DNA of 64,000 nucleotides from Escherichia phage vB_Eco_NR1. Under the pieces are notes generated by a model. The model was not told the DNA's origin and did no database searches. It was given only the letters and a program-made list of their open reading frames with translations. The position numbers and the translations under genes were made by a program. The stretch's first letter is position 1, and each line of letters starts with the position of its first letter. Positions 1,319-59,410 of the stretch are shown in pieces. The DNA is taken from the sequence record LR990704. The stretch is one strand, 5' to 3'.

Positions 1319-1566
1319 TGGAAGGTTTAATTGAAGCTATTAAATCAAACGACCTCGTAGCCGCTCGTAAATTATTTGCTGAAGCCATGGCTGCAAGAAC
1401 GATTGATTTAATTAAAGAAGAAAAAATCGCTATCGCTCGTAATTTCTTAATCGAAGGTGAAGAACCTGATGACGAGGATGATGACGAAGACGAAGATAGT
1501 GATGATAAAGACGACAAAAAAGACAAAGACTCTGATGAAGATGACGAAGACGAGGATGATGAATAA
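1318..1566 (+). CDS. 67: prohead core protein gp67 with D/E-rich acidic tail
   Basis: 82 aa ORF, ATGA overlap with gene 20 stop, C-terminal poly-Asp/Glu tract; position between 20 and 68 as in T4. Confidence 0.85.
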
Positions 1567-1991
1567 TGCTTCTGATCCCTGAAACTCATGAATTAGTTCT
1601 CGAGAATGTCGAAGCACTTATTCCTGAAGCACAGGGTCGCTTTGACGAATTGTCTTCTGCTTTAAATAAAGACGATATAAATACAATTGTCGAGAATATG
1701 CTTGATGATGAAACTGATTTAGCGGTTGCATTAGCTTCTATTAATGAAAATATGCCGCTAAATGAATTTATCGTTAAACATGTTTCCGCCCGTGGTGAAA
1801 TTACACGTACTAAAGACCGCAAGACGCGTGAACGTAATGCATTTCAAACCACTGGGCTGTCTAAAGCAAAACGTAGACAAATTGCTCGTAAAGCTACCAA
1901 AACGAAGATTGCCAATCCAGCAGGTCAATCTCGTGCTCAGCGTAAGCGTAAAAAAGCTCTTAAACGCCGTAAAGCATTAGGATTAAGCTAA
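1566..1991 (+). CDS. 68: prohead core protein gp68
   Basis: 141 aa ORF, basic C-terminus, start overlaps gene 67 stop; synteny. Confidence 0.85.
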
Positions 1992-2629
1992 TGAATGAAC
2001 CCCAATTACTAATTGAAACTTGGGGTCAACCTGGCGAAATTATTGATGGCGTGCCAATGCTTGAATCTCATGATGGAAAAGACCTAGGTTTAAAACCTGG
2101 TTTATACATCGAAGGAATATTCATGCAAGCGGAAGTCGTCAATAGAAATAAACGTCTTTATCCAAAACGTATATTAGAAAAAGCGGTAAAAGACTATATT
2201 AATGAGCAAGTTTTAACTAAACAAGCTCTCGGAGAATTAAATCATCCTCCACGCGCTAATGTTGACCCGATGCAAGCCGCTATCATTATAGAAGATATGT
2301 GGTGGAAAGGAAATGACGTATACGGACGAGCTCGTGTTATTGAAGGTGACCATGGTCCTGGAGATAAATTAGCAGCTAATATTCGTGCCGGATGGATTCC
2401 AGGAGTTTCTTCTCGTGGATTAGGTTCATTGACTGACACAAATAAAGGTTATCGTATCGTAAACGAAGGATTCAAATTAACTGTAGGTGTTGATGCAGTA
2501 TGGGGTCCAAGTGCTCCAGATGCATGGGTAACTCCTAAGGAAATTACCGAATCACAGACGGCGGAAGCCGATACAAGTGCCGATGACGCCTATATGGCTC
2601 TCGCAGAGGCCATGAAAAAAGCGTTATAA
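1991..2629 (+). CDS. 21: prohead core scaffold protein and maturation protease gp21
   Basis: 212 aa ORF in the canonical position, start overlaps gene 68 stop. Confidence 0.92.
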   Translation: MNEPQLLIETWGQPGEIIDGVPMLESHDGKDLGLKPGLYIEGIFMQAEVVNRNKRLYPKRILEKAVKDYINEQVLTKQALGELNHPPRANVDPMQAAIIIEDMWWKGNDVYGRARVIEGDHGPGDKLAANIRAGWIPGVSSRGLGSLTDTNKGYRIVNEGFKLTVGVDAVWGPSAPDAWVTPKEITESQTAEADTSADDAYMALAEAMKKAL

Positions 2630-2632
2630 ATA
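2625..2632 (+). promoter_or_regulatory. late promoter (TATAAATA) for gene 22
   Basis: Exact TATAAATA about 28 nt upstream of the gene 22 ATG. Confidence 0.7.
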
Positions 2633-2659
2633 TTATTATCTAAACAACAGGACTACAAA

Positions 2660-3469
2660 ATGCTTAAAGAACAACTGATTGCCGAAGCGCAGAAAATTGA
2701 TGCTTCCGTTGCTCTTGATAGTATTTTCGAATCAGTTAATATTTCTCCGGAAGCAAAAGAAACTTTCGGCACTGTATTCGAAGCTACCGTCAAGCAGCAC
2801 GCCGTTAAATTAGCTGAATCTCATATCGCTAAAATTGCTGAAAAAGCAGAAGAAGAAGTAGAAAAAAATAAAGAAGAAGCCGAAGAAAAAGCTGAGAAGA
2901 AAATCGCTGAGCAAGCTTCTAAATTCATTGACCATCTTGCAAAAGAATGGCTCGCTGAAAATAAATTAGCAATTGATAAAGGTATTAAAGCCGAACTGTT
3001 TGAATCCATGCTTGGTGGATTAAAAGAGCTCTTTGTTGAACACAACGTTGTTGTTCCAGAAGAATCAGTTGATGTTGTAGCTGAAATGGAAGAAGAGCTG
3101 CAAGAACATAAAGAAGAATCAGCTCGTCTGTTCGAAGAACTCAATAAGCGTGACGCATATATCAATTATGTGCAGCGTGAAGTGGCATTGAGCGAAAGTA
3201 CTAAAGATCTGACTGAGTCTCAAAAAGAAAAAGTCTCTGCTCTGGTCGAAGGTATGGATTATTCAGATGAATTCTCAAGTAAATTGAGTGCCATCGTAGA
3301 AATGGTGAAGAAGTCTAATAAAGATGAAAGCACTATTACTGAGGGTATAAATACTCCTGATACTGAAGCAGCCGGACTGAATTTCGTCACTGAAGCTGTA
3401 GAAGATAAAGCTGCACCTGGTGCAGAAGATATTGTAAGTGTATATGCGAAAGTCGCATCTCGTTTCTAA
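2660..3469 (+). CDS. 22: prohead core scaffold protein gp22
   Basis: 269 aa, highly charged helical E/K-rich protein; TATAAATA late promoter immediately upstream. Confidence 0.92.
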   Translation: MLKEQLIAEAQKIDASVALDSIFESVNISPEAKETFGTVFEATVKQHAVKLAESHIAKIAEKAEEEVEKNKEEAEEKAEKKIAEQASKFIDHLAKEWLAENKLAIDKGIKAELFESMLGGLKELFVEHNVVVPEESVDVVAEMEEELQEHKEESARLFEELNKRDAYINYVQREVALSESTKDLTESQKEKVSALVEGMDYSDEFSSKLSAIVEMVKKSNKDESTITEGINTPDTEAAGLNFVTEAVEDKAAPGAEDIVSVYAKVASRF

Positions 3470-3487
3470 TTTTAAAGGTTAACACAA

Positions 3488-5053
3488 ATGACTATCAAAA
3501 CTAAAGCTGAACTTTTGAACAAATGGAAACCATTACTGGAAGGTGAAGGTTTACCGGAAATTGCTAATAGCAAACAAGCGATTATCGCTAAAATCTTTGA
3601 AAACCAGGAAAAAGATTTCCATACAGCTCCAGAGTACAAAGACGAAAAAATCGCTCAGGCGTTTGGTTCTTTCTTAACAGAAGCTGAAATCGGTGGTGAC
3701 CACGGTTACAACGCTACTAACATCGCTGCTGGTCAGACTTCTGGCGCAGTAACTCAGATTGGCCCAGCTGTTATGGGTATGGTACGTCGTGCTATTCCTA
3801 ACCTGATTGCTTTCGATATTTGCGGTGTTCAGCCGATGAACAGCCCGACTGGTCAGGTATTCGCACTGCGCGCTGTATACGGTAAAGACCCAATCGCTGC
3901 CGATGCTAAAGAAGCATTCCACCCAATGTATGGCCCAGATGCAATGTTCTCTGGTCAGGGTGCTGCTAAGAAATTCCCAGCTCTGGCTGCTAGCACACAA
4001 ACCACAGTAGGTGATATCTATACTCACTTCTTCCAGGACACTGGTACTGTGTATCTGCAGGCTTCTGCTCAAGTAACAATTGATGCTGGTGCGACTGATG
4101 CTGCTAAATTAGATGCTGAAATTAAGAAACAAATGGAAGCAGGTGTACTGGTAGAAATCGCTGAAGGTATGGCTACTTCTATCGCTGAACTTCAGGAAGG
4201 TTTTAACGGTTCTACCGATAACCCATGGAATGAAATGGGCTTCCGTATCGATAAACAAGTTATCGAAGCTAAATCTCGTCAGCTGAAAGCTGCTTACTCT
4301 ATTGAATTAGCACAAGACCTTCGCGCTGTTCACGGTATGGATGCTGATGCTGAACTGTCCGGTATTCTGGCTACCGAAATTATGCTGGAAATCAACCGCG
4401 AAGTTGTTGATTGGATTAACTACTCCGCTCAGGTTGGTAAATCTGGTATGACCCTGACTCCGGGTTCTAAAGCTGGTGTATTTGACTTCCAGGACCCAAT
4501 CGATATTCGTGGTGCTCGCTGGGCGGGTGAATCCTTTAAAGCTCTGTTGTTCCAGATTGACAAAGAAGCAGTTGAAATTGCTCGTCAGACCGGTCGTGGT
4601 GAAGGTAACTTCATTATCGCTTCCCGTAACGTAGTTAACGTTCTGGCTTCAGTTGATACTGGCATTTCTTATGCTGCACAGGGTCTGGCTACCGGCTTTA
4701 ACACTGATACTACCAAGTCAGTATTTGCTGGTGTTCTGGGTGGTAAATACCGTGTATATATCGACCAGTATGCTAAACAGGATTATTTCACTGTAGGTTA
4801 TAAAGGTCCGAACGAAATGGATGCTGGTATTTACTATGCTCCATATGTAGCTCTGACTCCGCTGCGTGGTTCCGATCCGAAGAACTTCCAACCAGTAATG
4901 GGATTCAAAACTCGTTACGGTATCGGTATCAACCCATTTGCAGAATCCGCTGCTCAGGCTCCGGCTTCTCGCATCCAGAGCGGTATGCCTTCTATTCTGA
5001 ATAGCCTTGGTAAAAACGCTTACTTCCGCCGTGTATATGTTAAAGGTATCTAA
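3488..5053 (+). CDS. 23: major capsid protein gp23
   Basis: 521 aa; N-terminus MTIKTKAELLNKWKPLLEGEG.. recognised as T4 gp23; strong SD; stem-loop terminator downstream. Confidence 0.97.
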   Translation: MTIKTKAELLNKWKPLLEGEGLPEIANSKQAIIAKIFENQEKDFHTAPEYKDEKIAQAFGSFLTEAEIGGDHGYNATNIAAGQTSGAVTQIGPAVMGMVRRAIPNLIAFDICGVQPMNSPTGQVFALRAVYGKDPIAADAKEAFHPMYGPDAMFSGQGAAKKFPALAASTQTTVGDIYTHFFQDTGTVYLQASAQVTIDAGATDAAKLDAEIKKQMEAGVLVEIAEGMATSIAELQEGFNGSTDNPWNEMGFRIDKQVIEAKSRQLKAAYSIELAQDLRAVHGMDADAELSGILATEIMLEINREVVDWINYSAQVGKSGMTLTPGSKAGVFDFQDPIDIRGARWAGESFKALLFQIDKEAVEIARQTGRGEGNFIIASRNVVNVLASVDTGISYAAQGLATGFNTDTTKSVFAGVLGGKYRVYIDQYAKQDYFTVGYKGPNEMDAGIYYAPYVALTPLRGSDPKNFQPVMGFKTRYGIGINPFAESAAQAPASRIQSGMPSILNSLGKNAYFRRVYVKGI

Positions 5054-5066
5054 TCTTTGACGATTT

Positions 5067-5097
5067 AAGGGACCTTCGGGTCCCTTTAGTTGTTTTT
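5067..5097 (+). terminator. intrinsic terminator after gene 23
   Basis: AAGGGACC-TTCG-GGTCCCTT stem-loop followed by a T-rich tract. Confidence 0.8.
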
Positions 5098-5101
5098 ATG
5101 G

Positions 5102-5109
5102 TATAAATA
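5102..5109 (+). promoter_or_regulatory. late promoter (TATAAATA) for gene 24
   Basis: Exact TATAAATA 28 nt upstream of the gene 24 ATG, just after the gene 23 terminator. Confidence 0.75.
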
Positions 5110-5136
5110 AATCATATAAACCAAAAGGAAAGCGCA

Positions 5137-6420
5137 ATGGCTAAAATCAACGAACTTCTGCGCGAATCAACCACAACGAATAGCAACTCAATCGGTCGCC
5201 CAAATCTCGTTGCTTTGACTCGCGCTACCACTAAATTAATATATTCTGACATTGTAGCAACGCAAAGAACTAATCAACCTGTTGCTGCTTTTTATGGTAT
5301 CAAATACCTTAACCCAGACAATGAATTTACATTTAAAACTGGTGCTACTTATGCTGGCGAAGCTGGATATGTAGACCGAGAACAAATCACAGAATTAACA
5401 GAAGAGTCTAAATTAACTCTCAATAAAGGCGATTTATTCAAATATAATAATATTGTTTATAAAGTATTAGAAGATACACCATTTGCTGATATTGAAGAAA
5501 GCGATTTAGAATTAGCTCTTCAGATTGCAATTGTTCTTTTAAAGGTTCGTTTATTTTCTGATGCTGCAGTAACAAGCAAATTTGAAAGCTCTGATAGTGA
5601 AATTGCGGATGCTAGATTCCAGATTAATAAATGGCAAACTGCAGTTAAATCTCGTAAACTTAAAACTGGCATTACGGTTGAATTAGCACAAGATTTAGAA
5701 GCAAATGGATTCGATGCTCCTAATTTCTTGGAAGATTTGCTTGCAACTGAAATGGCAGATGAAATCAATAAAGATATTCTGCAATCTTTGATTACAGTAT
5801 CAAAACGCTATAAAGTTACAGGAATTACTGATACTGGATTCATTGATTTGAGTTATGCATCTGCACCTGAAGCTGGTCGTTCATTATACCGAATGGTATG
5901 TGAAATGGTTTCGCATATCCAAAAAGAATCAACTTATACTGCAACGTTCTGTGTTGCTTCAGCTCGTGCCGCTGCGATTCTTGCTGCATCAGGTTGGTTA
6001 AAACATAAACCAGAAGATGACAAATATCTTTCACAAAATGCCTATGGGTTCTTAGCTAATGGTTTACCGCTTTATTGCGATACTAACAGCCCATTAGATT
6101 ATGTAATCGTTGGCGTAGTAGAAAATATTGGCGAAAAAGAAATTGTTGGATCAATTTTCTATGCTCCATATACAGAAGGTCTTGACTTAGATGACCCTGA
6201 ACATGTAGGTGCATTTAAAGTTGTAGTTGATCCAGAAAGTTTGCAGCCATCTATCGGTTTATTAGTTAGATATGCTTTATCAGCAAATCCTTATACCGTA
6301 GCAAAAGATGAAAAAGAAGCAAGAATAATTGACGGTGGAGACATGGATAAAATGGCGGGTCGTTCAGATTTGTCTGTTTTATTAGGTGTTAAGCTACCAA
6401 AAATTATCGTTGATGAATAA
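5137..6420 (+). CDS. 24: capsid vertex protein gp24
   Basis: 427 aa gp23 paralogue in canonical position; late promoter upstream; terminator downstream. Confidence 0.95.
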   Translation: MAKINELLRESTTTNSNSIGRPNLVALTRATTKLIYSDIVATQRTNQPVAAFYGIKYLNPDNEFTFKTGATYAGEAGYVDREQITELTEESKLTLNKGDLFKYNNIVYKVLEDTPFADIEESDLELALQIAIVLLKVRLFSDAAVTSKFESSDSEIADARFQINKWQTAVKSRKLKTGITVELAQDLEANGFDAPNFLEDLLATEMADEINKDILQSLITVSKRYKVTGITDTGFIDLSYASAPEAGRSLYRMVCEMVSHIQKESTYTATFCVASARAAAILAASGWLKHKPEDDKYLSQNAYGFLANGLPLYCDTNSPLDYVIVGVVENIGEKEIVGSIFYAPYTEGLDLDDPEHVGAFKVVVDPESLQPSIGLLVRYALSANPYTVAKDEKEARIIDGGDMDKMAGRSDLSVLLGVKLPKIIVDE

Positions 6421-48335: not shown

Positions 48336-48343
48336 TATAAATA
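48336..48343 (+). promoter_or_regulatory. late promoter (TATAAATA) for gene 34
   Basis: Exact TATAAATA about 35 nt upstream of the gene 34 ATG. Confidence 0.7.
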
Positions 48344-48377: not shown

Positions 48378-51300
48378 ATGGCCGAGATTAAAAGAAAGTT
48401 CAGAGCAGAAGACGGTCTGGACGCAGGTGGCGATAAAATAATCAACGTAGCTTTAGCTGATCGTACCGTAGGAACTGACGGTGTTAACGTTGATTACTTA
48501 ATTCAAGAAAACACAGTTCAACAATACGATCCAACTCGTGGATATTTAAAAGATTTTGTAATCATTTATGATAACCGCTTTTGGGCTGCTATAAATGATA
48601 TTCCAAAACCAGCAGGAGCTTTTAATAGCGGACGCTGGAGAGCATTACGTACCGATGCTAACTGGATTACGGTTTCATCTGGTTCATATCAATTAAAATC
48701 CGGTGAAGCTATTTCGGTTAACACTGCAGCTGGAAATGACATCACGTTTACTTTACCATCTACTCCAATTGATGGTGATACTATCGTTCTCCAAGATATT
48801 GGAGGAAAACCTGGAGTTAACCAAGTTTTAATTGTAGCTCCAGTGCAAAGTATTGTAAACTTCAGAGGTCAACAAGTACGTTCAGTACTAATGACTCATC
48901 CAAAATCGCAGATAGTTTTAATTTTTAGTAATCGTCTGTGGCAAATGTATGTTGCTGATTATAGTAGAGAAGCTGTAGTTGTAACACCAGCAAGTCTCTA
49001 TCAGGCGCAATCTAATGATTTTATCGTACGTAGATTTACTTCTGCTGCACCAATTAATGTTAAACTTCCAAGATTTGCTAATCATGGCGATATTATTAAT
49101 TTCGTTGATTTAGATAAACTGAATCCACTTTATCATACAATTGTTACTACATACGATGAAACGACTTCAGTACAAGAAGTTGGAACTCATTCCATTGAAG
49201 GCCGTACATCAATTGACGGTTTCTTGATGTTTGATGATAATGAGAAATTGTGGAGATTGTTTGACGGGGATAGTAAAGCACGTTTACGCATTATAACGAC
49301 TAATTCTAATATTCGTCCAAACGAAGAAGTCATGGTATTTGGTGCGAATAACGGAACAACTCAAACAATTGAGCTTCAGCTTCCAACTAATATTTCTGTT
49401 GGTGATACTGTTAAAATTTCCATGAATTACATGAGAAAAGGACAAACAGTTAAAATCAAAGCTGCGGGCGAAGATAAAATTGCTTCTTCAGTTCAATTAC
49501 TGCAATTCCCAAAACGCTCAGAATATCCACCTGAAGCTGAATGGGTTACAGTTCAAGAATTAGTTTTTAACGGTGAAACTAATTATGTTCCAGTTTTACA
49601 ACTTGCTTATATAGAAGATTCTGATGGAAAATACTGGGTTGTACAGCAAAACGTTCCAACTGTAGAAAGAGTTGATTCTTTAAATGATTCTACTAGAGCA
49701 AGATTAGGCGTAATTGCTTTAGCTACACAAGCTCAAGCTAATGCCGATTTAGAAAATTCTCCACAAAAAGAATTAGCAATTACTCCAGAAACATTAGCTA
49801 ACCGTACTGCTACTGAAACTCGCAGAGGTATTGCAAGAATAGCAACTACTGCTCAAGTGAATCAGAACACCACATTCTCTTTTGCAGATGACCTTATCAT
49901 TACTCCTAAAAAGCTGAATGAAAGAACTGCTACAGAAACTCGCAGAGGTGTTGCTGAAATTGCTACGCAGCAAGAAACTAATGCAGGAACCGATGATACT
50001 ACAATCATCACTCCTAAAAAGCTTCAAGCTCGCCAAGGTTCTGAATCATTATCTGGTATTGTAACTTTTGTATCTACTGCAGGTGCTACTCCAGCTTCTA
50101 GTCGTGAATTAAATGGTACGAATGTTTATAATAAAAACACTAATAATTTAGTTGTTTCACCTAAAGCTTTGGATCAGTATAAAGCTACTCCAACACAGCA
50201 AGGTGCAGTAATTTTAGCAGTTGAAAGTGAAGTAATTGCTGGACAAAGCCAAGAAGGATGGGCAAATGCGGTTGTAACGCCAGAAACGTTACATAAAAAG
50301 ACATCAACTGATGCAAGAATTGGTTTAATTGAAATTGCTACGCAAAGTGAAGTTAATACAGGAACTGATTATACTCGTGCAGTCACTCCTAAAACTTTAA
50401 ATGACCGTAGAGCAACTGAAAGTTTAAGTGGTATAGCTGAAATTGCTACACAAGTTGAATTCGACGCAGGCGTCGACGATACTCGTATCTCTACACCATT
50501 AAAAATTAAAACCAGATTTAATAGTACTGATCGTACTTCTGTTGTTGCTCTATCTGGATTAGTTGAATCAGGAACTCTCTGGGACCATTATACCCTTAAT
50601 ATTCTTGAAGCAAATGAGACACAGCGTGGTACACTTCGTGTAGCTACACAGGTCGAAGCTGCTGCAGGAACATTAGATAATGTTTTAATAACTCCTAAAA
50701 AGCTTTTAGGTACTAAATCTACCGAATCGCAAGAAGGTGTTATTAAAGTTGCAACTCAGTCTGAAACTGTGGCTGGAACGTCAGCAAATACTGCTGTATC
50801 TCCAAAAAATTTAAAATGGATTGCGCAGAGTGAACCTACCTGGGCAGCTACTACTGCGATAAGAGGTTTTGTTAAAACTTCATCTGGTTCAATTACATTC
50901 GTTGGTAATGATACAGTCGGTTCTACCCAAGATTTAGAACTGTATGAGAAAAATAGCTATGCAGTATCACCATATGAATTAAACCGTGTATTAGCAAATT
51001 ATTTGCCGTTAAAAGCAAAAGCTGCTGATACAAATTTATTGGATGGTCTAGATTCATCTCAGTTCATTCGTAGGGATATTGCACAGACAGTTAATGGTTC
51101 ACTAACCTTAACTCAACAAACGAATCTGAGTGCCCCTCTTGTATCATCTAGTACTGCTACGTTTGGCGGATCAGTTTCGGCAAACAGCACATTAACTATT
51201 TCTAATACTGGAACGGCAACTCGTCTGATTTTTGAGAAAGGACCTCAAACTGGAACTAACCCAGCGCAGACGATGACTATCAGAGTTTGGGGAAATCAGT

Positions 51301-52247
51301 TTGGTGGCGGTTCAGATACAATGCGTTCTACTGTATTTGAAGTTGGTGATGAAACGTCTAATCACTTTTATTCTCAACGCAATAAAGCTGGGAATATAAC
51401 GTTTAGTATCAATGGTACTGTAATGCCAATAAATGTTAATGCTTCGGGTTCTTTGAATGCGAACGGCGTTGCAACATTTGGTAGTTCAGTTACTGCTAAT
51501 GGTGAATTCATCAGCAAGTCTGCAAATGCTTTCAGAGCAATAAATGGCGACTATGGATTCTTTATTCGCAATGATGCTGCTAACACCTATTTTATGCTTA
51601 CTGCATCGGGTGATCAGACTGGCGGATTTAATGGATTACGTCCTTTAGCTATTAATAATGCATCTGGTCAAGTAACGATTGGTGAAAGCTTAATCATTGC
51701 CAAAGGTGCTACTATAAATTCAGGTGGTTTAACTGTTAACTCGAGAATTCGTTCTCAGGGCACTAAAACATCTGACTTATATACCCGTGCGCCAACGTCT
51801 GATACTGTAGGATTCTGGTCAATCGATATTAATGATTCAGCTACTTATAACCAGTTCCCAGGTTATTTTAAAATGGTTGAAAAAACTAATGAAGTGACTG
51901 GGCTTCCATACTTAGAACGTGGCGAAGAAGTTAAATCTCCTGGTACATTGACTCAGTTTGGTAACACACTTGATTCGCTTTACCAAGATTGGATTACTTA
52001 TCCAACGACTCCAGAAGCACGTACCACTCGCTGGACACGTACATGGCAGAAAACCAAAAACTCTTGGTCAAGTTTTGTTCAGGTATTTGACGGAGGTAAC
52101 CCTCCTCAGCCGTCTGATATCGGTGCTTTACCATCTGATAATGCTACAATGGGGAATCTTACTATTCGTGATTTCTTACGAATTGGTAATGTTCGCATTA
52201 TTCCTGACCCAGTGAATAAAACGGTTAAATTTGAATGGGTTGAATAA
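48378..52247 (+). CDS. 34: long tail fibre proximal subunit gp34
   Basis: 1289 aa; late promoter upstream; internal tandem repeats. Confidence 0.95.
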   Translation: MAEIKRKFRAEDGLDAGGDKIINVALADRTVGTDGVNVDYLIQENTVQQYDPTRGYLKDFVIIYDNRFWAAINDIPKPAGAFNSGRWRALRTDANWITVSSGSYQLKSGEAISVNTAAGNDITFTLPSTPIDGDTIVLQDIGGKPGVNQVLIVAPVQSIVNFRGQQVRSVLMTHPKSQIVLIFSNRLWQMYVADYSREAVVVTPASLYQAQSNDFIVRRFTSAAPINVKLPRFANHGDIINFVDLDKLNPLYHTIVTTYDETTSVQEVGTHSIEGRTSIDGFLMFDDNEKLWRLFDGDSKARLRIITTNSNIRPNEEVMVFGANNGTTQTIELQLPTNISVGDTVKISMNYMRKGQTVKIKAAGEDKIASSVQLLQFPKRSEYPPEAEWVTVQELVFNGETNYVPVLQLAYIEDSDGKYWVVQQNVPTVERVDSLNDSTRARLGVIALATQAQANADLENSPQKELAITPETLANRTATETRRGIARIATTAQVNQNTTFSFADDLIITPKKLNERTATETRRGVAEIATQQETNAGTDDTTIITPKKLQARQGSESLSGIVTFVSTAGATPASSRELNGTNVYNKNTNNLVVSPKALDQYKATPTQQGAVILAVESEVIAGQSQEGWANAVVTPETLHKKTSTDARIGLIEIATQSEVNTGTDYTRAVTPKTLNDRRATESLSGIAEIATQVEFDAGVDDTRISTPLKIKTRFNSTDRTSVVALSGLVESGTLWDHYTLNILEANETQRGTLRVATQVEAAAGTLDNVLITPKKLLGTKSTESQEGVIKVATQSETVAGTSANTAVSPKNLKWIAQSEPTWAATTAIRGFVKTSSGSITFVGNDTVGSTQDLELYEKNSYAVSPYELNRVLANYLPLKAKAADTNLLDGLDSSQFIRRDIAQTVNGSLTLTQQTNLSAPLVSSSTATFGGSVSANSTLTISNTGTATRLIFEKGPQTGTNPAQTMTIRVWGNQFGGGSDTMRSTVFEVGDETSNHFYSQRNKAGNITFSINGTVMPINVNASGSLNANGVATFGSSVTANGEFISKSANAFRAINGDYGFFIRNDAANTYFMLTASGDQTGGFNGLRPLAINNASGQVTIGESLIIAKGATINSGGLTVNSRIRSQGTKTSDLYTRAPTSDTVGFWSIDINDSATYNQFPGYFKMVEKTNEVTGLPYLERGEEVKSPGTLTQFGNTLDSLYQDWITYPTTPEARTTRWTRTWQKTKNSWSSFVQVFDGGNPPQPSDIGALPSDNATMGNLTIRDFLRIGNVRIIPDPVNKTVKFEWVE
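49698..50898 (+). repeat. about nine degenerate 35 to 40 aa tandem repeats within gp34
   Basis: Recurring ..ITPKKL..R.ATE..RG.A.IATQ.E...GTDDT.. units visible in the translation. Confidence 0.7.
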
Positions 52248-52255
52248 GAGGTATT

Positions 52256-53371
52256 ATGGAAAAATTTATGGCAGAGTTTGGACAAGGATATGTCCAAACG
52301 CCATTTTTATCGGAAAGCAATTCAGTAAGATACAAAATAAGTATAGCGGGTTCTTGCCCGCTTTCTACTGCAGGACCATACGTTAAATTTCAGGATAATC
52401 CTGTAGGAAGTCAAACATTTAGCGCAGGACTTCATTTAAGAGTTTTTGACCCTTCCACCGGAGCATTAGTTGATAGTAAGTCATATGCTTTTTCGACTTC
52501 AAATGATACTACATCAGCTGCTTTTGTTAGCTTCATGAATTCTTTGACAAATAATAGAATTGTTGCTATATTAACTAACGGAAAGGTTAATTTTCCTCCT
52601 GAAGTAGTATCTTGGCTAAGAACTGCAGGAACGTCTGCTTTTCCATCTGATTCTATATTGTCAAGATTCGACGTATCATATGCTGCTTTTTATACTTCTT
52701 CTAAAAGAGCTATCGCATTAGAGCATGTTAAATTAAGTAATAGAAAAAGCACAGATGATTATCAAACTATTTTAGATGTTGTATTTGACAGTTTAGAAGA
52801 CGTTGGAGCTACCGGGTTTCCAAGAAGAACGTATGAAAGCGTTGAGCAATTCATGTCAGCGGTTGGTGGAACTAATAACGAAATTGCGCGATTGCCAACT
52901 TCAGCTGCTATAAGTAAATTATCTGATTATAATTTAATTCCTGGCGATGTTCTTTATCTTAAAGCTCAGTTATATGCTGATGCTGATTTACTTGCGCTTG
53001 GAACTACGAATATATCCATTCGATTTTATAATGCATCAAATGGATATATTTCCTCAACACAGGCTGAATTTACCGGGCAAGCTGGATCTTGGGAATTAAA
53101 GGAAGATTATGTAGTTGTTCCAGAAAACGCTGTAGGATTTACGATATATGCACAAAGAACTGCACAAGCTGGCCAAGGTGGCATGAGAAATTTAAGCTTT
53201 TCTGAAGTATCAAGAAACGGCGGCATTTCAAAACCTGCTGAATTTGGCGTCAATGGTATTCGTGTTAATTATATCTGTGAATCTGCTTCACCTCCGGATA
53301 TAATGGTACTTCCTACACAAGCATCGTCTAAAACTGGTAAAGTGTTTGGGCAAGAATTTAGAGAAGTATAA
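52256..53371 (+). CDS. 35: long tail fibre hinge protein gp35
   Basis: 371 aa. Confidence 0.9.
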   Translation: MEKFMAEFGQGYVQTPFLSESNSVRYKISIAGSCPLSTAGPYVKFQDNPVGSQTFSAGLHLRVFDPSTGALVDSKSYAFSTSNDTTSAAFVSFMNSLTNNRIVAILTNGKVNFPPEVVSWLRTAGTSAFPSDSILSRFDVSYAAFYTSSKRAIALEHVKLSNRKSTDDYQTILDVVFDSLEDVGATGFPRRTYESVEQFMSAVGGTNNEIARLPTSAAISKLSDYNLIPGDVLYLKAQLYADADLLALGTTNISIRFYNASNGYISSTQAEFTGQAGSWELKEDYVVVPENAVGFTIYAQRTAQAGQGGMRNLSFSEVSRNGGISKPAEFGVNGIRVNYICESASPPDIMVLPTQASSKTGKVFGQEFREV

Positions 53372-53376
53372 ATTGA

Positions 53377-53402
53377 GGGAGCCTTCGGGTTCCCTTTTTC
53401 TT
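53377..53402 (+). terminator. intrinsic terminator after gene 35
   Basis: GGGAGCC-TTCG-GGTTCCC imperfect stem-loop followed by TTTTTCTTTAT. Confidence 0.7.
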
Positions 53403-53410
53403 TATAAATA
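53403..53410 (+). promoter_or_regulatory. late promoter (TATAAATA) for gene 36
   Basis: Exact TATAAATA 24 nt upstream of the gene 36 ATG. Confidence 0.7.
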
Positions 53411-53433: not shown

Positions 53434-54096
53434 ATGGCTGATTTAAAAGTAGGTTCAACAACTGGAGGCTCTGTCATTTGGCATCAAGGAAATTTTCCAT
53501 TGAATCCAGCCGGTGACGATGTACTCTATAAATCATTTAAAATATATTCAGAATATAACAAACCACAAGCTGCAGATAACGATTTCGTTTCTAAAGCTAA
53601 TGGTGGTACTTACGCCGCGACTGTTCGATTTAATGGAGGCGTACATGTTCCTACTATAGGTAGTAGTCAACAGTGTGGTGTTTATCCAGGTAACGGTGAT
53701 GCAGCTACTTTTGCTATGGCAAATATTGACATCGTTTCGTGGAATGGTATTGGTTTTAAATCATCACAAGGTTCAGCAGACCGAACTGTTGTAATTAATG
53801 CACGTAATGGTGATATTAGTACAAAAGGCGTTGTGACAGCAGTAGGTCAAATAAGAAGTAATGCAGTTTCTCCTGTATCAGCAAATGACCTTACTAGAAA
53901 GGACTATGTTGATGGAGCAATAAATACTGTTACAGCAAATGCGAACTCTAGAGTGTTGCGTTCTGGCGACACTATGATAGGTAATTTAACCGCGCCAAAC
54001 TTTTTCTCACAGAATCCTGCATCTCAACCTTCACATGTTCCACGATTTGACCAAATCGTAATTAAGGATTCTGTTCAAGATTTCGGCTATTATTAA
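53434..54096 (+). CDS. 36: long tail fibre distal connector gp36
   Basis: 220 aa; late promoter upstream. Confidence 0.9.
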   Translation: MADLKVGSTTGGSVIWHQGNFPLNPAGDDVLYKSFKIYSEYNKPQAADNDFVSKANGGTYAATVRFNGGVHVPTIGSSQQCGVYPGNGDAATFAMANIDIVSWNGIGFKSSQGSADRTVVINARNGDISTKGVVTAVGQIRSNAVSPVSANDLTRKDYVDGAINTVTANANSRVLRSGDTMIGNLTAPNFFSQNPASQPSHVPRFDQIVIKDSVQDFGYY

Positions 54097-54104
54097 GAGG
54101 ACTT

Positions 54105-57100
54105 ATGGCTACTTTAAAACAAATACAATTTAAAAGAAGCAAAACCGCAGGTGCACGTCCTGCTGCTTCAGTATTAGCCGAAGGTGAATTGGCTATAAAC
54201 TTAAAAGATAGAACACTTTTTACTAAAGATGATTCAGGAAATATCATTGATTTAAGCATTTCCACTGGCGGTAATATCAGTGGAAATATCACTCAAACTG
54301 GAGATTATTTACAGAACGGTACATATAATCTCAATGGAAATCAGTTTGTTTATGCAGGAAAATATATTGAATTTTTACCTAAAACTGCAGGTAATGGCGC
54401 TTGGGCAAATCAACACCTAAATAAAGCCCCTATTTTTACAGATTTAAGTTCAACTACTTCTACTTCAGAATACCATCCGCTAATTAAACAGCGTTATAAA
54501 GATGGGACTTTTTCTGTTGGTACGCTAGTAAACGAAGGAAGTTTTAAAATTCATTATATCAATGAATCGGGAACTTCAAAATACTGGACATTTCGTAGAG
54601 ATGGTGGATTTGTTGTTGATACAGGAAGTTTGACAGTAACAGATGGAAATATTTCTGCTTCTGGTAATATTAATTCGGCTACTGGGGTAGTTTCTGCGCC
54701 ACGTGTCAACACAAAAAATATTAACATAAGCACGAAAACCTTTATCCCGAATAATGACGCGGGTTATGACATTGTTTCTTTACCTACCTGGGTTTATAAC
54801 CCACCGGCCGATGGTTCCGACAATACTACAAATGGATTGAACTATTTGCGTAAATTACGTGCATCAAGCGCATCAAGTATTTTCCATGAAATTGTTGATT
54901 GTCGAAAAGGTAAGCCGCAAGAAATTTCTTGGTGGACTGGTGTAGGACCTTCGTCTTTCCAGTGGGCGTTTGATACCTCTGGACGTATTACTGCAGGTAA
55001 ATCTATTTCTGTAGGTCTTCCTGATAGTGGTACAAATGGTCGTTATCCTTTAGATTCTGCAATTTCTATTGGTATTGCGATTGGCGATAACGATACCGGT
55101 ATTAAATGGGTCCGCGATGGCGTTTATGACCTGATGGCTAACGGTATTTCATCTGCTACCATTTTGAATAATGGTATTAATAGTACTAAAAAATTGATGG
55201 TTGGTTATAGTCGAGATTCCGGTTCTACTTGGGATTTCCCAAATAATAACCAAGCAATGTTTACTGCGCGTACCGATGTTGATGGTAATAATAACGGCGA
55301 TGGACAGACTCATATCGGATATAGCAGCAATGCTAAGATGTATCACTATTTCCGTGGTACAGGTCGTATGTCCGTTAGTATGGGTGATGGGCTTCTTGTT
55401 GAGCCTGGCATTTTAGATATTAAAACCGGTTCTAATAGCGTTGCTATTAGAGCAGACGGAACAATTAACTCCACCCAGCGTATTTCTATGCGTACGGGCT
55501 TGTTTTTAAATGGTGATGATAATACTAATGCTTTATCGTTTAAAGCTCCTTCCGGTGTAGATGGTACCAAAACCATTAACTGGGATGCAGGTACTCGTAA
55601 TGGTCAGAATAAAAATACCGTAACCATTAAAGCATGGGGTAATTCATTTAACGCTGAAAAGGGTAATAGAGAAACTGTATTCGAAGTTTCAGATTCACAA
55701 GGTTATTATTTCTACGCTCAACGTACTAATCCTGCGTCAGGTCAAACAGTAGGTCCGGTTAACTTTAAATTTAACGGAACTGTCGAAACAGGCCATATCA
55801 TAGGCCTTGGTAATATAAGTGCCTCCGGTACAGGTTCTTTTGGTGGCAATGTTACTATGTCTAACGGTTTGTTTGTCCAAGGTGGTTCTTCTATTACAGG
55901 CCAAGTAAAAATTGGTGGAACAGCTGACGCATTAAGAATTTGGAATGCTGAATACGGCGCAATTTTCCGTCGTTCTGAAAGTAACTTTTATATTATTCCA
56001 ACTCTTAAAGATGCTGGAGAATCAGGTGGTATAAGTAATCTTAGACCATTGATAATAGAACTGAACACCGGCACAGTTAAAATGTCGCATGATGTTCATT
56101 TAGGAGATTCTGGATCTGGTACAGGATTATTACAAGTAAGTAATAGTCTTAAAACTATTAAAATGATATGTCCAGTAACTATTAATGAACGTAATGCAGC
56201 GCTTACTCTAGATTCTCCTTCATCTTCTTCTGCTAATTATTTACAAGGTTCTAAAGCTGGAATTAGATCGTGGTATGTTGGTCTTGGTGGCGCTGGAAGT
56301 GATTTATCGCTTTATAGTCAATCATATGGACACGGTCTTGTTATAAGCGATAATTTCGTGTCAATCAGTAAACCTCTTAAAGTCGGAAATGCCCAACTAG
56401 GAACTGACGGTAATATTACCAACGGTTCTGGTAATTTTGCTAACTTAAACACCACGCTAAATCGTAAAGTTAATTCTGGATTTATTACTTATGGAGCAAC
56501 TGCTGGATGGTATAAGTTTGCAACAGTAACAATGCCACAATCCACTTCTACGGTCTTCTTTAAAATAGCCGGTGGTTCTGGATTTAATAGTGGATTATTC
56601 ACACAATGCAATATTGCTGAAATTGTTTTACGTACTAGTAATGAAAGACCTGCTGACTTAAATGCTGTATTATACACAAGAACAATTGCAGCTGCATTTA
56701 AAAATATTGCAGTTAATAACGTCTCTGGAGATACATATGACATTTATGTTTATGCCGGAACATATTGCAATCAATTAACTTGTGAATGGTCATGTACCGA
56801 AAATGCTACTGTTAGCGTTATTGGTATTAACTCATCTACCCAATCACCTGTGGATGCTCTTCCAGATACAGCAGTTGATGGGCAAGTTGCTAATGTTCTT
56901 AATAACTTGGTTGATCGCGGCAAAGTTAAGCGTTATGAAGCCGATTCTGAAATAGCTATTAATAACCAAACTGGTATTCGTATTAGAAGCAACAGCGATA
57001 AAACTGGTTCTGTTGCTACAATGCTACGAAATGATGGCAGTAGTTTTTATATTCTGTTTACAGATAAAAATGCCACCGATGGCGAAGCAACTGTTAACGG

Positions 57101-57905
57101 TGATTGGAATAGTAAGCGTCCTTTCGCAATTAACTTAACAACAGGCGAAGTATTAATGAATAACGGCATAGCTGTTCGCAGTGCTGCTTTATTCTATAAT
57201 AGCATAAATGTCAAAGATAATGGTTCTATTAACTTTGATAAGTCTGGTGCTAACCCAAGAAATATGAGAATATTTCATGCTGGCGATGCTTCTCGTGGTA
57301 ACCGTATTGAAATTGCCGATGAAACTAACTATATTGCTTACTTTGAAAAAGCTCCAGGTGGAGCTAACCGCTTTGTAGTAAATAATGCTACTGTAGCTGG
57401 TGTTAACCAAATGAATTCATTTGGTATTAATATCAATAACGCACTTGGTGGAAATAGTATAGCATTTGGTGATAGCGATACTGGTATTAAGCAAAATGGC
57501 GATGGATTATTAGACATATATGCGAACAGCGTACAAGTATTCCGTTTCCAAAACGGTGATTTGTACTCATATAAAAATATAAATGCTCCAAACGTTTATA
57601 TTCGTTCTGATATTCGCTTAAAATCTAATTTCAAACCTATCGAAAATGCACTTGATAAAGTTGAAAAACTCAATGGTGTCATTTATGATAAAGCTGAATA
57701 CATCGGTGGAGAGGCAATTGAAACTGAAGCGGGTATTGTAGCTCAAACGTTACAAGACGTTTTACCAGAAGCCGTCCGTGAAACAGAAGACAGCAAGGGT
57801 AATAAAATACTCACTGTTTCTTCTCAAGCCCAGATTGCTCTTCTGGTTGAAGCTGTGAAAACGCTTTCTTCTCGTGTAAAAGAACTTGAATCTAAACTTA
57901 TGTAA
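54105..57905 (+). CDS. 37: long tail fibre distal subunit gp37 with C-terminal intramolecular chaperone-like domain
   Basis: 1266 aa; conserved N-terminus (MATLKQIQFKRSKTAGARPAAS..); C-terminal ..NAPNVYIRSDIRLKSNFKPIENALDKVEKLNGVIYDKAEY.. resembles self-cleaving chaperone domains. Confidence 0.93.
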   Translation: MATLKQIQFKRSKTAGARPAASVLAEGELAINLKDRTLFTKDDSGNIIDLSISTGGNISGNITQTGDYLQNGTYNLNGNQFVYAGKYIEFLPKTAGNGAWANQHLNKAPIFTDLSSTTSTSEYHPLIKQRYKDGTFSVGTLVNEGSFKIHYINESGTSKYWTFRRDGGFVVDTGSLTVTDGNISASGNINSATGVVSAPRVNTKNINISTKTFIPNNDAGYDIVSLPTWVYNPPADGSDNTTNGLNYLRKLRASSASSIFHEIVDCRKGKPQEISWWTGVGPSSFQWAFDTSGRITAGKSISVGLPDSGTNGRYPLDSAISIGIAIGDNDTGIKWVRDGVYDLMANGISSATILNNGINSTKKLMVGYSRDSGSTWDFPNNNQAMFTARTDVDGNNNGDGQTHIGYSSNAKMYHYFRGTGRMSVSMGDGLLVEPGILDIKTGSNSVAIRADGTINSTQRISMRTGLFLNGDDNTNALSFKAPSGVDGTKTINWDAGTRNGQNKNTVTIKAWGNSFNAEKGNRETVFEVSDSQGYYFYAQRTNPASGQTVGPVNFKFNGTVETGHIIGLGNISASGTGSFGGNVTMSNGLFVQGGSSITGQVKIGGTADALRIWNAEYGAIFRRSESNFYIIPTLKDAGESGGISNLRPLIIELNTGTVKMSHDVHLGDSGSGTGLLQVSNSLKTIKMICPVTINERNAALTLDSPSSSSANYLQGSKAGIRSWYVGLGGAGSDLSLYSQSYGHGLVISDNFVSISKPLKVGNAQLGTDGNITNGSGNFANLNTTLNRKVNSGFITYGATAGWYKFATVTMPQSTSTVFFKIAGGSGFNSGLFTQCNIAEIVLRTSNERPADLNAVLYTRTIAAAFKNIAVNNVSGDTYDIYVYAGTYCNQLTCEWSCTENATVSVIGINSSTQSPVDALPDTAVDGQVANVLNNLVDRGKVKRYEADSEIAINNQTGIRIRSNSDKTGSVATMLRNDGSSFYILFTDKNATDGEATVNGDWNSKRPFAINLTTGEVLMNNGIAVRSAALFYNSINVKDNGSINFDKSGANPRNMRIFHAGDASRGNRIEIADETNYIAYFEKAPGGANRFVVNNATVAGVNQMNSFGININNALGGNSIAFGDSDTGIKQNGDGLLDIYANSVQVFRFQNGDLYSYKNINAPNVYIRSDIRLKSNFKPIENALDKVEKLNGVIYDKAEYIGGEAIETEAGIVAQTLQDVLPEAVRETEDSKGNKILTVSSQAQIALLVEAVKTLSSRVKELESKLM

Positions 57906-57907
57906 AA

Positions 57908-57935
57908 GAGGGCTTCGGCCCTCTAAGGATTTTTA
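57908..57935 (+). terminator. stem-loop after gene 37
   Basis: AGAGGGC-TTCG-GCCCTCT stem-loop, short T-tract, directly before the gene 38 start. Confidence 0.55.
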
Positions 57936-58721
57936 ATGGCAATTGTAGGTGTTCCTGGCTGGATTGGTGAATCTGCCGTGAATGAAACTGGACAGCGTTG
58001 GATGGATGCTGCGATGAGAGCAGTTCGTGTTTCAGTTCCTGGTTGGATGAGCTCAATGGCTGGGCAATCTAAAGAAGTATATTATAGCATTGGTGCTAGC
58101 AATTCTTACAATAAAGACACACTAATAAATTGGATAAAAGCCCAAGGAAGTACTCCTGTTGTTATTACTATTACAGGAAATATCGTTTCTTCATCGACAG
58201 GTCAACCATGCTTAGATTTTCCTAGCTCATTAACTAATGCATACGTGACACTTAATATCAATTCAGGCGTGCATGTTTGGGGTCGCGGCGGGAATGGTGG
58301 AAATAACTCTGCTGGCGGAGCAGGAGGAACTGCAATAAATAACGGAATTGGAACTAGATTACGTATTAATAACAATGGTGTTATCGCAGGTGGCGGTGGC
58401 GGCGGTGGCGGCGGATACTACTCTCCTTTTTCACAAATGAGATTGACTTTTGGCGGTGGAGGTGGTCGTCCATTTGGTGCTGCTGGTGGGTCTGCTAATA
58501 TGGAACAGGGTGCTACTGCTGGTACTATTTCTGCGCCCGGTAAAGGGTCTGTCAATGGTATCTATAATGGCGGGAATGGTGGTGATGCCGGTGCCGCAGG
58601 AGGTAAATGTAATATTCGCGGTCAAGGATCAGAATATAACGGCGGCGCTGCTGGTAAAGCTGTTACTGGTAATGCTCCAACTTGGACTAAAGTTGGCACA
58701 ATATATGGTTCAAGAGTATAA
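57936..58721 (+). CDS. 38: gp38 receptor-recognising adhesin (T2-type) with glycine-rich motifs
   Basis: 261 aa; conserved N-terminus MAIVGVPGWIGESAVNETGQRWM..; glycine-rich motifs and a G9 run separating variable segments. Confidence 0.88.
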   Translation: MAIVGVPGWIGESAVNETGQRWMDAAMRAVRVSVPGWMSSMAGQSKEVYYSIGASNSYNKDTLINWIKAQGSTPVVITITGNIVSSSTGQPCLDFPSSLTNAYVTLNINSGVHVWGRGGNGGNNSAGGAGGTAINNGIGTRLRINNNGVIAGGGGGGGGGYYSPFSQMRLTFGGGGGRPFGAAGGSANMEQGATAGTISAPGKGSVNGIYNGGNGGDAGAAGGKCNIRGQGSEYNGGAAGKAVTGNAPTWTKVGTIYGSRV

Positions 58722-58753: not shown

Positions 58754-59410
58754 ATGGCAGCACCTAGAATATCATTTTCGCCCTCTGATATTCTATTTGG
58801 TGTTCTAGATCGCTTGTTCAAAGATAACGCTACCGGGAAAGTTCTTGCTTCCCGGGTAGCTGTCGTAATTCTTTTATTTATGATGGCGATTGTTTGGTAT
58901 AGGGGAGATAGTTTCTTTGAGTACTATAAGCAATCAAAGTATGAAACATACAGTGAAATTATTGAAAAGGAAAGAAATGCACGCTTTGAATCTGTCGCCC
59001 TGGAACAACTCCAGATAGTTCATATATCATCTGAGGCAGACTTTAGTGCGGTGTATTCTTTCCGCCCTAAAAACTTAAACTATTTTGTTGATATTATAGC
59101 ATACGAAGGAAGATTACCTTCAACAATAACTGAAAAATCACTTGGAGGATATCCTGTTGATAAAACTATGGATGAATATATAGTTCATTTAAATGGACGT
59201 CATTATTATTCTGACTCAAAATTTGCTTTTTTACCAACTAAAAAGCCTACTCCCGAAATAAACTACATGTACAGTTGTCCATATTTTAATTTGGATAATA
59301 TCTATGCTGGAACGATAACCATGTACTGGTATAGAAATGATCATATAAGTAATGACCGCCTTGAATCAATATGCGCTCAGGCGGCCAGAATATTAGGAAG
59401 GGCTAAATAA
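58754..59410 (+). CDS. t: holin T
   Basis: 218 aa; MAAPRISFSPSDILFGVLDRLF.. with a single transmembrane helix. Confidence 0.95.
   Translation: MAAPRISFSPSDILFGVLDRLFKDNATGKVLASRVAVVILLFMMAIVWYRGDSFFEYYKQSKYETYSEIIEKERNARFESVALEQLQIVHISSEADFSAVYSFRPKNLNYFVDIIAYEGRLPSTITEKSLGGYPVDKTMDEYIVHLNGRHYYSDSKFAFLPTKKPTPEINYMYSCPYFNLDNIYAGTITMYWYRNDHISNDRLESICAQAARILGRAK

Follow-up and report, generated by a model that had tools for sequence, protein, structure and literature searches.

Organization of the tail fiber locus

The genes at the end of the long tail fiber cluster of Escherichia phage vB_Eco_NR1 raise the question of which proteins form the distal tip of the fiber and which host receptor that tip recognizes. 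The window, in other words the whole 64,000-nucleotide stretch of DNA that was analyzed (sequence record LR990704), had the gene order of the T-even phages, 34-35-36-37-38-t, with each gene assigned by Pfam or PHROGs. Gene 38 was located directly 3' of gene 37 and 5' of the holin gene t, as judged from the open reading frame list and Pfam.

48378-52247: gp34 (Pfam or PHROGs)
52256-53371: gp35 (Pfam or PHROGs)
53375-53396: UUCG hairpin with a T-run, just before the late promoter box
53403..53410, + strand: T4-type late promoter box TATAAATA, exact match, 5' of gene 36
53434..54096, + strand: gp36, distal hinge connector, which joins the gp37 N-terminus (Pfam Phage_T4_gp36, E 3.3e-37; phrog_1425)
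54105..57905, + strand: gene 37, distal long-tail-fiber subunit precursor, 1266 aa (phrog_1699, E 1.7e-295 over aa 1-1266)
57907..57924, + strand: hairpin AGAGGGC-UUCG-GCCCUCU in the gap separating genes 37 and 38, with an AAGGA ribosome-binding site after it (identified by sequence)
57936..58721, + strand: gene 38, T2-type receptor-recognizing adhesin, 261 aa (Pfam GP38 and Gp38_N)
58754-59410: holin t (Pfam or PHROGs)

A preliminary description of this DNA, made from the letters alone, had placed a gp37 of 1266 aa and a gp38 of 261 aa at these positions, in exact agreement with the open reading frame list. The two products were identical to CAD7712074.1 and CAD7712075.1, respectively, both from phage vB_Eco_NR1, which has received only passing mentions in the literature. 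The late promoter box probably drives genes 36-37-38, which would then be co-transcribed. The same arrangement of hairpin and late promoter is annotated in the SA20RB record. The hairpin between genes 37 and 38 was terminator-like in a scan, with a weak T tail, and the corresponding hairpin in the K3 record is annotated as a potential terminator.

The locus very likely encodes the distal long-tail-fiber tip of a T2/T6-type Tequatrovirus, consisting of a gp37 with a self-cleaving chaperone and a gp38 adhesin that binds Tsx. Nothing that was found contradicts a T2-type tip. Earlier publications already cover the architecture, the chaperone that cleaves itself off, the fold of the adhesin and the rule by which the receptor is predicted from gp38 phylogeny; the locus represents known biology and raises no new question.

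The gp37 tip and its C-terminal chaperone

The C-terminus of gp37 had been described as resembling the intramolecular chaperones that are cleaved off after trimerization, and the peptide quoted in support (..NAPNVYIRSDIRLKSNFKPIENALDKVEKLNGVIYDKAEYIGGEAIETEAGIVAQTLQDVLPEA..) was present in the translation. Three adjoining features were assigned at this end of the protein.

57432..57605, + strand: distal tip of the mature fiber, gp37 aa 1110-1167, ending in NAPNVYIR; predicted gp38 docking surface
57603..57623, + strand: predicted autocleavage site R1167^S1168 with the SDIRLK motif, placed by motif position
57606..57902, + strand: C-terminal intramolecular chaperone (Peptidase_S74, PF13884), gp37 aa 1168-1266, 99 aa

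The Peptidase_S74 match (aa 1168-1225) covered profile positions 58/58 with an E value of 1.8e-15 and 57.4 bits (cutoff 22). Judged by their profile scores, this match and the GP38 and Gp38_N matches described below are no chance resemblance. Pfam also found Peptidase_S74 in the gp37 of T2, T6, FriedrichMiescher, slur07, AugustSocin and PaulHMueller, and the domain was present in all seven of the T2-type gp37 proteins tested. The segment before the chaperone (aa 1110-1167) aligned with the gp37 tip of Salmonella phage S16 (6F45_A, E 1.7e-11), and the gp38-docking role given to it here is taken from the S16 structure. Thus a full-length S74 domain, an alignment to the tip plus chaperone of 6F45 and a Ser/+5 Lys pair all bore out the chaperone-like character of the segment.

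Both Ser1168 and Lys1173 were intact in the motif NVYIR^SDIRLK, which was kept in 11 T2-type gp37 sequences. R1167^S1168 aligned with DLNVS^SDRRIKK of S16, for which cleavage at S^SDRRIKK has been published, and with DVYIR^SDGRLKI of fPS; the residues preceding the site differ between S16 (DLNVS) and the protein analyzed here (NVYIR). A Ser/+5 Lys mechanism has been described for the chaperones of T5 pb1 (Ser1264/Lys1269) and K1F, and by analogy with these Ser1168 is the predicted nucleophile and Lys1173 the predicted general base. The K1F endosialidase and T5 pb1 (MEROPS S74) share with gp37 the Pfam domain, the motif and its C-terminal position, and they release the chaperone after trimerization, as would gp37. 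What the release exposes in K1F and T5 pb1 is part of the same chain, either a receptor-binding or an enzymatic domain; in gp37 it is predicted to bare the site at which another protein, the adhesin, docks.

The last ~130 residues of gp37, comprising tip and chaperone, were nearly identical to those of T2 gp37, whose C-terminal proteolytic processing is published (Drexler 1986). Because of this near-identity and the published processing in T2 and S16, we infer that the chaperone is released. It is very improbable, and supported by nothing that was found, that the S74 domain instead stays in the mature fiber, or is inactive, with gp38 binding elsewhere: the catalytic pair is intact, the profile is covered end to end, the nearly identical T2 protein undergoes processing, and in S16 the docking surface exists only once cleavage has taken place.

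gp38 as a T2-type adhesin

Two Pfam families were matched by gp38: GP38 (PF05268, E 2e-71, 240.7 bits, cutoff 25) and Gp38_N (PF21721, E 8.2e-18, 64.6 bits, cutoff 25). The protein also matched phrog_2056 (E 1.9e-104), the S16 gp38 structure (6F45_D, E 4.6e-49, aligned over aa 8-259) and the PP01 gp38 structure (9V85, E 2.4e-32). Two regions were distinguished within it.

57936..58073, + strand: attachment domain, gp38 aa 1-46, T2 subtype, with W9, W22 and W37 (1 difference from T2)
58281..58664, + strand: predicted receptor-binding region, gp38 aa 116-243, with glycine-rich motifs and variable loops (motif coordinates and conservation pattern)

The three tryptophans were invariant in an alignment of gp38 from the window, T2, T6, S16, SA20RB and FriedrichMiescher; in the S16 structure they are the prongs that enter pockets of gp37. 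It has been published that the gp38 N-terminus has to match gp37. Alignment with T2, T6 and their relatives, which the preliminary description had called for, delimited the variable segments (~123-126, 161-172, 186-211 and 224-235) between six conserved glycine-rich motifs (116-122, 127-131, 152-160, 173-185, 212-223 and 236-243). Glycine made up 23% of the protein, with runs at G152-160 and G173-177. Tryptophan invariance, Pfam and the alignment therefore agreed on the layout previously read from the sequence, that is, a conserved attachment region followed by glycine motifs separating variable segments.

Among known systems, the S16 tip (6F45, Dunne et al. 2018) has the same two-protein architecture, with an S74 chaperone on gp37 and a gp38 combining a three-tryptophan attachment domain with a polyglycine-II sandwich, as predicted here; its gp38 is ~46% identical to the one in the window, and S16 binds Salmonella OmpC. 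In T2, for which a C-terminally processed gp37 and a gp38 adhesin were described in the work of Drexler, Riede and Henning (1985-87), the gene order is shared and gp38 aa 1-46 differ by one residue. However, the T2 gp37 is longer (1341 aa versus 1266 aa) with a different shaft, and the receptor-binding half of its gp38 is only 57% identical; T2 uses FadL.

T4 has the same locus and the same fiber scaffold (gp34-37, with the Gp34_trimer domain), but differs at the tip. Its gp37 contained Collar and Phage_fiber domains and no Peptidase_S74 when compared with Pfam, and ends in a Collar/needle/head receptor-binding domain, while its gp38 (183 aa), which matched no Pfam family, is an unrelated chaperone that acts in trans. 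These records and publications concur with the difference from T4 that had been stated at the outset. An identity of the gp38 in the window as a T4-type assembly chaperone, with gp37 itself binding the receptor, is extremely improbable and was rejected. Several GenBank records of close homologs do carry the name 'distal long tail fiber assembly catalyst', but the protein was only 11.9% identical to T4 gp38 in alignment, belongs to two adhesin families that include no T4 gp38, and has structural counterparts in the adhesins of S16 and PP01; moreover, the T4 RefSeq note calls T2-type gp38 unrelated and the adhesin. The name on T2-type gp38 is an annotation inherited from T4.

Prediction of the receptor

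The receptor-binding half of gp38 was 100% identical to that of Solly and 99.3% identical to those of Escherichia phage FriedrichMiescher (Bas39) and Shigella phage JK38 (98.9% over the full length). Both of the latter are Tequatroviruses that require Tsx, as determined by knockout for FriedrichMiescher and by RB-TnSeq for JK38. The lone difference from them in this half was R169K, and R169 is common to the gp38 of the window and the Tsx-binding gp38 of T6. In T6 the loops are closely similar (YYSPF(S/P)QMRLTF, ..GSVNGIYNGGNGG.. and CNIRGQGSEY) and aa 111-261 are 79.5% identical, but the two adhesins differ in the subtype of their N-terminal attachment half, where identity is 44.5%, and the T6 gp37 (994 aa) has a different tip. 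Since the receptor-binding half is 99.3% identical to those of two Tsx-dependent phages, the primary receptor is predicted to be the E. coli nucleoside channel/porin Tsx, an assignment that is new here. That the gp38 loops set receptor specificity, as was proposed for this locus, has been published (swapping gp38 switches the receptor), and by sequence the allele in the window belongs to the Tsx-binding group.

At the DNA level, gene 38 was only 93.8% identical to that of FriedrichMiescher, with almost all differences synonymous. The dN/dS value of 0.036 at a dS of 0.27 indicates strong purifying selection on the whole adhesin.

A single loop substitution can switch the receptor (Q206L turns OmpF into OmpW specificity), so near-identity is strong evidence for the receptor and not proof of it. 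The adhesin of the OmpA-binding phage PaulHMueller was 76% identical in the same half, about as close as some Tsx binders; among the adhesins compared, overall identity below ~80% cannot tell gp38 receptors apart. Retargeting by single substitutions, the closeness of this OmpA binder and the residual plating of some T-even phages without their main receptor leave some room for the same architecture directed at OmpA, OmpF, FadL or OmpC, or at a second receptor beside Tsx. Such a primary receptor is nevertheless quite unlikely given the identity to Solly and to the two Tsx-dependent phages, and an R169 shared with T6.

Under the preferred explanation, a T2-type tip that recognizes Tsx, gp37 would be synthesized as a 1266-aa precursor whose last 99 residues, an S74-type intramolecular chaperone, would help three gp37 chains register into a beta-structured fiber. 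Once a correct trimer had formed, Ser1168, activated by Lys1173, would cut the R1167-S1168 bond and the chaperone would leave, exposing a flat trimeric gp37 tip ending in NVYIR. A single copy of gp38 would dock there through the N-terminal domain, whose W9, W22 and W37 would serve as prongs, and would be carried on the virion with its loops, borne on a polyglycine-II sandwich, binding the primary receptor, predicted to be Tsx. The call of Tsx, made without experiment, confirms that sequence can reveal which receptor a T-even-like phage uses, which is useful in picking phages for cocktails.

Mosaic origin and internal module of gp37

The shaft of gp37, a protein 93.5% identical in amino acid sequence to SA20RB gp37, contained the following features.

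55653..56057, + strand: Gp34_trimer-like shaft domain, gp37 aa 517-651 (Pfam PF21446, E 9.6e-10)
56202..56420, + strand: gp37_trimer domain, gp37 aa 700-772, T7 gp17 pyramid-like (Pfam PF20744, E 7.4e-10)
56436..56452, + strand: recombination crossover within gene 37, aa ~778-783 (slur07-like 5', FriedrichMiescher-like 3')
56472..56909, + strand: uncharacterized beta-sandwich module, gp37 aa ~790-935 (AlphaFold2 all-beta model, low confidence)

According to Pfam, the Gp34_trimer-like domain is common to the gp37 of T4, T2 and T6. A match to slur07 spanned 54010-56452 with 1 mismatch in 2443 nt, and a match to FriedrichMiescher spanned 56436-57994 with 0 mismatches over 1559 nt. On these alignments, slur07-like and FriedrichMiescher-like DNA meet cleanly within gene 37, which is a chimera with its joint at 56436-56452, a finding new here. 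The FriedrichMiescher gp37 was only 78% identical overall, aa ~27-777 of the gp37 in the window being slur07-type.

The module at aa ~790-935 was the only piece of the locus without an explanation. It matched no Pfam family, and its alignment profile gave a lone match among PDB sequences, to the WceF C-terminus, which was not significant (E 0.66). A word-indexed protein search with a 161-aa internal fragment gave no matches, and one with a 36-sequence profile gave only 4 partial prophage fiber proteins, too few for a deep alignment. The AlphaFold2 models of this region had pLDDT values too low to trust (48.1 from a single sequence, 55.6 from five sequences). Foldseek comparison of the latter model found nothing at E<=1e-3 in the PDB, where the only matches were beta-sandwiches of a generic kind (TM ~0.4), and in BFVD it found gp37-like fibers alone. 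When aa 700-935 were compared with T7 gp17, the pyramid part matched (aa 700-772 against 4a0t/4a0u, E ~5e-6; against 7boz residues 373-448, E 1.9e-5), but the module following it was without a PDB match, either by profile or by Foldseek on the low-confidence model. It is unlikely, though conceivable, that the module is a second, lateral binding site tuning host range independently of gp38; such a site may bind a surface glycan, for example.

The module directly follows the T7-fiber-like pyramid domain and lies at the recombination junction. A search at E<=1e-3 placed it in 153 representative proteins, where its internal position varied, and it was also present in Stf-like fibers of E. coli prophages. 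It is common to many unrelated fiber proteins, the lambdoid side tail fibers among them.

Organization of the tail-fibre locus

The genes for the distal long-tail-fibre subunit precursor (gp37) and the small adhesin predicted to cap its tip (gp38) are adjacent in vB_Eco_NR1, within a canonical T-even late block (genes 34-t). All members of the block were identified with Pfam and PHROGs and by synteny with annotated relatives, and the open reading frames of gp37 and gp38 had exactly the positions and lengths given in the preliminary description.

48378-52247, gp34
52256-53371, gp35
53434-54096, gp36
54105-57905, + strand, gene 37, 1266 aa
57936-58721, + strand, gene 38, 261 aa
58754-59410, holin t

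Beyond holin t, asiA, arn and motA are encoded on the minus strand. Residues 58-127 of gp35 (window 52427-52636) matched the Pfam family ILEI (E 6.2e-9). This domain is otherwise known from animal FAM3/ILEI proteins, and its link to phages has already been described, as the 'GG domain' of the LTF hinge.

Many Tequatrovirus genomes share 95-97% identity with the adjoining 24 kb. The whole 37-38 module was absent from every record of the phage collection, the best being SA20RB (89.5% at the nucleotide level). In Shigella phage JK38 (record L008), gene 37 (1501-5992) is annotated as two overlapping coding sequences, 1501-4221 and 4208-5992, which may reflect a frameshift or an error in the sequencing. 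Proteins identical to gp37 (CAD7712074.1) and gp38 (CAD7712075.1) were present at NCBI under Escherichia phage vB_Eco_NR1, of which the searchable literature held only a passing mention. The finding is genuine and had been correctly interpreted, but the module belongs to textbook biology of T2-type tail fibres, in a phage whose sequence was already deposited; this analysis adds a prediction of Tsx as receptor, an exact cleavage motif and a recombination map.

A predicted self-cleaving chaperone at the gp37 C-terminus

The gp37 C-terminus, described earlier as chaperone-like, is of the intramolecular chaperone type, as indicated by a full Peptidase_S74 ('chaperone of endosialidase') profile at aa 1168-1225 (Pfam, E 1.8e-15, profile positions 1-58 of 58), by the alignment of aa 1110-1264 to the gp37 chain of the Salmonella phage S16 gp37-gp38 crystal structure (6F45), and by a Ser/+5 Lys motif. 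The junction reads ..NAPNVYIR-SDIRLKSNF.., with Ser1168 and Lys1173 spaced as in T5 pb1, where Lys1269 activates the scissile Ser1264 (PMC4690869). The published autocleavage site of S16 is DLNVS^SDRRIKK, and the site predicted for T2-like Yersinia phages is DVYIR^SDGRLKI (PMC7917993). The motif (N/D)VYIR^SD.R.K was conserved throughout when the C-termini of eleven T2-type gp37 proteins were aligned together with S16. The last ~130 residues of the window gp37, tip included, hardly differ from those of T2 gp37, for which PMC3157838 cites Drexler et al. 1986 as having demonstrated proteolytic processing of the C-terminus. If gp37 is cut at R1167^S1168, the mature protein would have 1167 aa and the released chaperone a predicted 99 aa. 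S74 was also found in gp37 of T2, T6, FriedrichMiescher, slur07, AugustSocin and PaulHMueller, whereas T4 gp37 lacks it and has Collar and Phage_fiber domains instead.

Architecture of the gp38 adhesin

Two Pfam families cover gp38, Gp38_N at aa 1-42 (E 8.2e-18) and GP38 at aa 47-261 (E 2e-71). Together with matches of aa 8-259 to S16 gp38 (6F45_D, E 4.6e-49) and of gp38 to the receptor-binding domain of PP01 gp38 (9V85, E 2.4e-32), they confirmed a T2-type adhesin with a conserved N-terminal domain. Alignment with T2, T6 and related adhesins delimited its variable segments between the conserved glycine-rich motifs, a layout described by Trojet et al. 2011 and Lutz et al. 2025.

Glycine-rich motifs: aa 116-122, 127-131, 152-160 (nine Gly), 173-185, 212-223, 236-243
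Variable segments: aa 123-126 (short), 161-172, 186-211, 224-235

W9, W22 and W37 were invariant among all adhesins aligned; in S16, three conserved attachment-domain tryptophans fill three pockets of the gp37 trimer (PMC6851490). T4 gp38 was 12% identical to the window gp38 and matched no Pfam family, and the T4 RefSeq note calls the T2-type gp38 unrelated. The earlier interpretation, including its statement that in T4 gp37 is the receptor-binding tip and gp38 a chaperone, is therefore supported.

According to Trojet et al., each gp38 N-terminal subtype is always paired with the matching gp37 C-terminal subtype, and a study of PP01 found that function needs the N-terminal 113 aa of gp38 to match T2 gp37 (PMC12892980). 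Judged by sequence, the gp37 tip and gp38 N-terminus in the window are both of the T2 subtype, T2 gp38 differing at one residue within aa 1-46.

Predicted receptor

Identity over gp38 aa 111-261, the receptor-binding half, was compared among phages.

Identity to the window gp38 over aa 111-261, and receptor
Solly: 100%
FriedrichMiescher: 99.3%, Tsx
JK38: 99.3%, Tsx
T6: 79.5%, Tsx
PaulHMueller: 76%, OmpA
TadeuszReichstein: 75.5%, Tsx
T2: 57%, FadL
AugustSocin, PP01, S16: ~47-50%, OmpF (AugustSocin), OmpC (PP01, S16)

According to the supplementary table of Maffei et al. 2021, FriedrichMiescher (Bas39) depends on Tsx together with the deep LPS core. JK38 was assigned Tsx/Kdo by RB-TnSeq (bioRxiv 10.64898/2026.04.02.716166), and TadeuszReichstein (Bas43) is Tsx-dependent as well. 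Over the whole protein, three residues (S86Q, Q90V and R169K) set gp38 apart from its FriedrichMiescher counterpart, with R169K the sole loop difference; T6 also has Arg at this position. The primary receptor is very probably Tsx, a strong prediction that stops short of certainty because a swap of the gp38 distal half can switch a phage from Tsx to OmpA and one gp38 substitution can switch OmpF to OmpW (bioRxiv 10.64898/2026.04.02.716166).

Mosaic origin and selection

Sliding-window comparison with slur07 and FriedrichMiescher was used to map the mosaic. Window 54010-56452 had one mismatch to slur07 in 2443 nt, and 56436-57994 had none to FriedrichMiescher in 1559 nt, which places the crossover within the 17-nt overlap 56436-56452 (gp37 aa ~778-783), at the boundary of two shaft domains. 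The tract identical to FriedrichMiescher ends at a second sharp junction at ~57995, gp38 codon ~20. Both junctions lie in conserved sequence, a pattern described by Tetart and Trojet.

Past 57995, DNA identity to FriedrichMiescher was ~94%, while the gp38 proteins were 98.9% identical. Gene 38 showed 43 synonymous versus 3 non-synonymous codon differences from FriedrichMiescher (dN/dS 0.036, dS 0.27), and its closest DNA match, JLBYU22, was only 96.9% identical. The 'hypervariable' loops have thus stayed constant within this Tsx allele despite substantial synonymous divergence.

Shaft domains of gp37

Two Pfam domains and an internal module were recognized in the gp37 shaft.

aa 517-651, Gp34_trimer
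aa 700-772, window 56202-56420, gp37_trimer
aa ~790-935, window 56472-56909, internal module, predicted beta-sandwich fold

The gp37_trimer domain resembles the T7 gp17 pyramid domain (PDB 4a0t, 7boz, E ~5e-6 to 2e-5). It was present in gp37 of the window, slur07 and FriedrichMiescher and was not detected in gp37 of T2, T6, PaulHMueller or AugustSocin.

The internal module, with the motif GW.KIATV.MPQ..ST...GG.GFN.G...Q....EIV.R.GN..PKGIN...VNTSGD.YDIY, had no match in Pfam or among PDB sequences, not even when searched with a profile built from 36 sequences. Its 153 representative homologues occur at differing internal positions in fibre-like proteins, including Stf-type side tail fibres of E. 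coli/lambdoid prophages. A word-indexed protein search left a 161-aa gp37 fragment unmatched though it is encoded without nucleotide mismatch in FriedrichMiescher gene 37, and its negatives on sub-fragments are therefore untrustworthy. AlphaFold2 gave an all-beta sandwich at low confidence (pLDDT 55.6), and Foldseek with this model found no significant PDB match. The default reading of the module is a structural knob; an auxiliary binding site is quite improbable.

Expression signals

Late-promoter boxes (TATAAATA) were found at 48336, upstream of gene 34, and at 53403, upstream of gene 36, the latter following a UUCG-tetraloop hairpin with a T-run (53375-53396) 3' of gene 35. Another UUCG-loop hairpin (57907-57924) lies between genes 37 and 38, directly 5' of the gp38 ribosome-binding site; in the K3 record, the hairpin between these genes is annotated as a potential terminator. 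We speculate that the hairpin at 57907-57924 may lower gp38 output relative to gp37, three chains of which are present per gp38.
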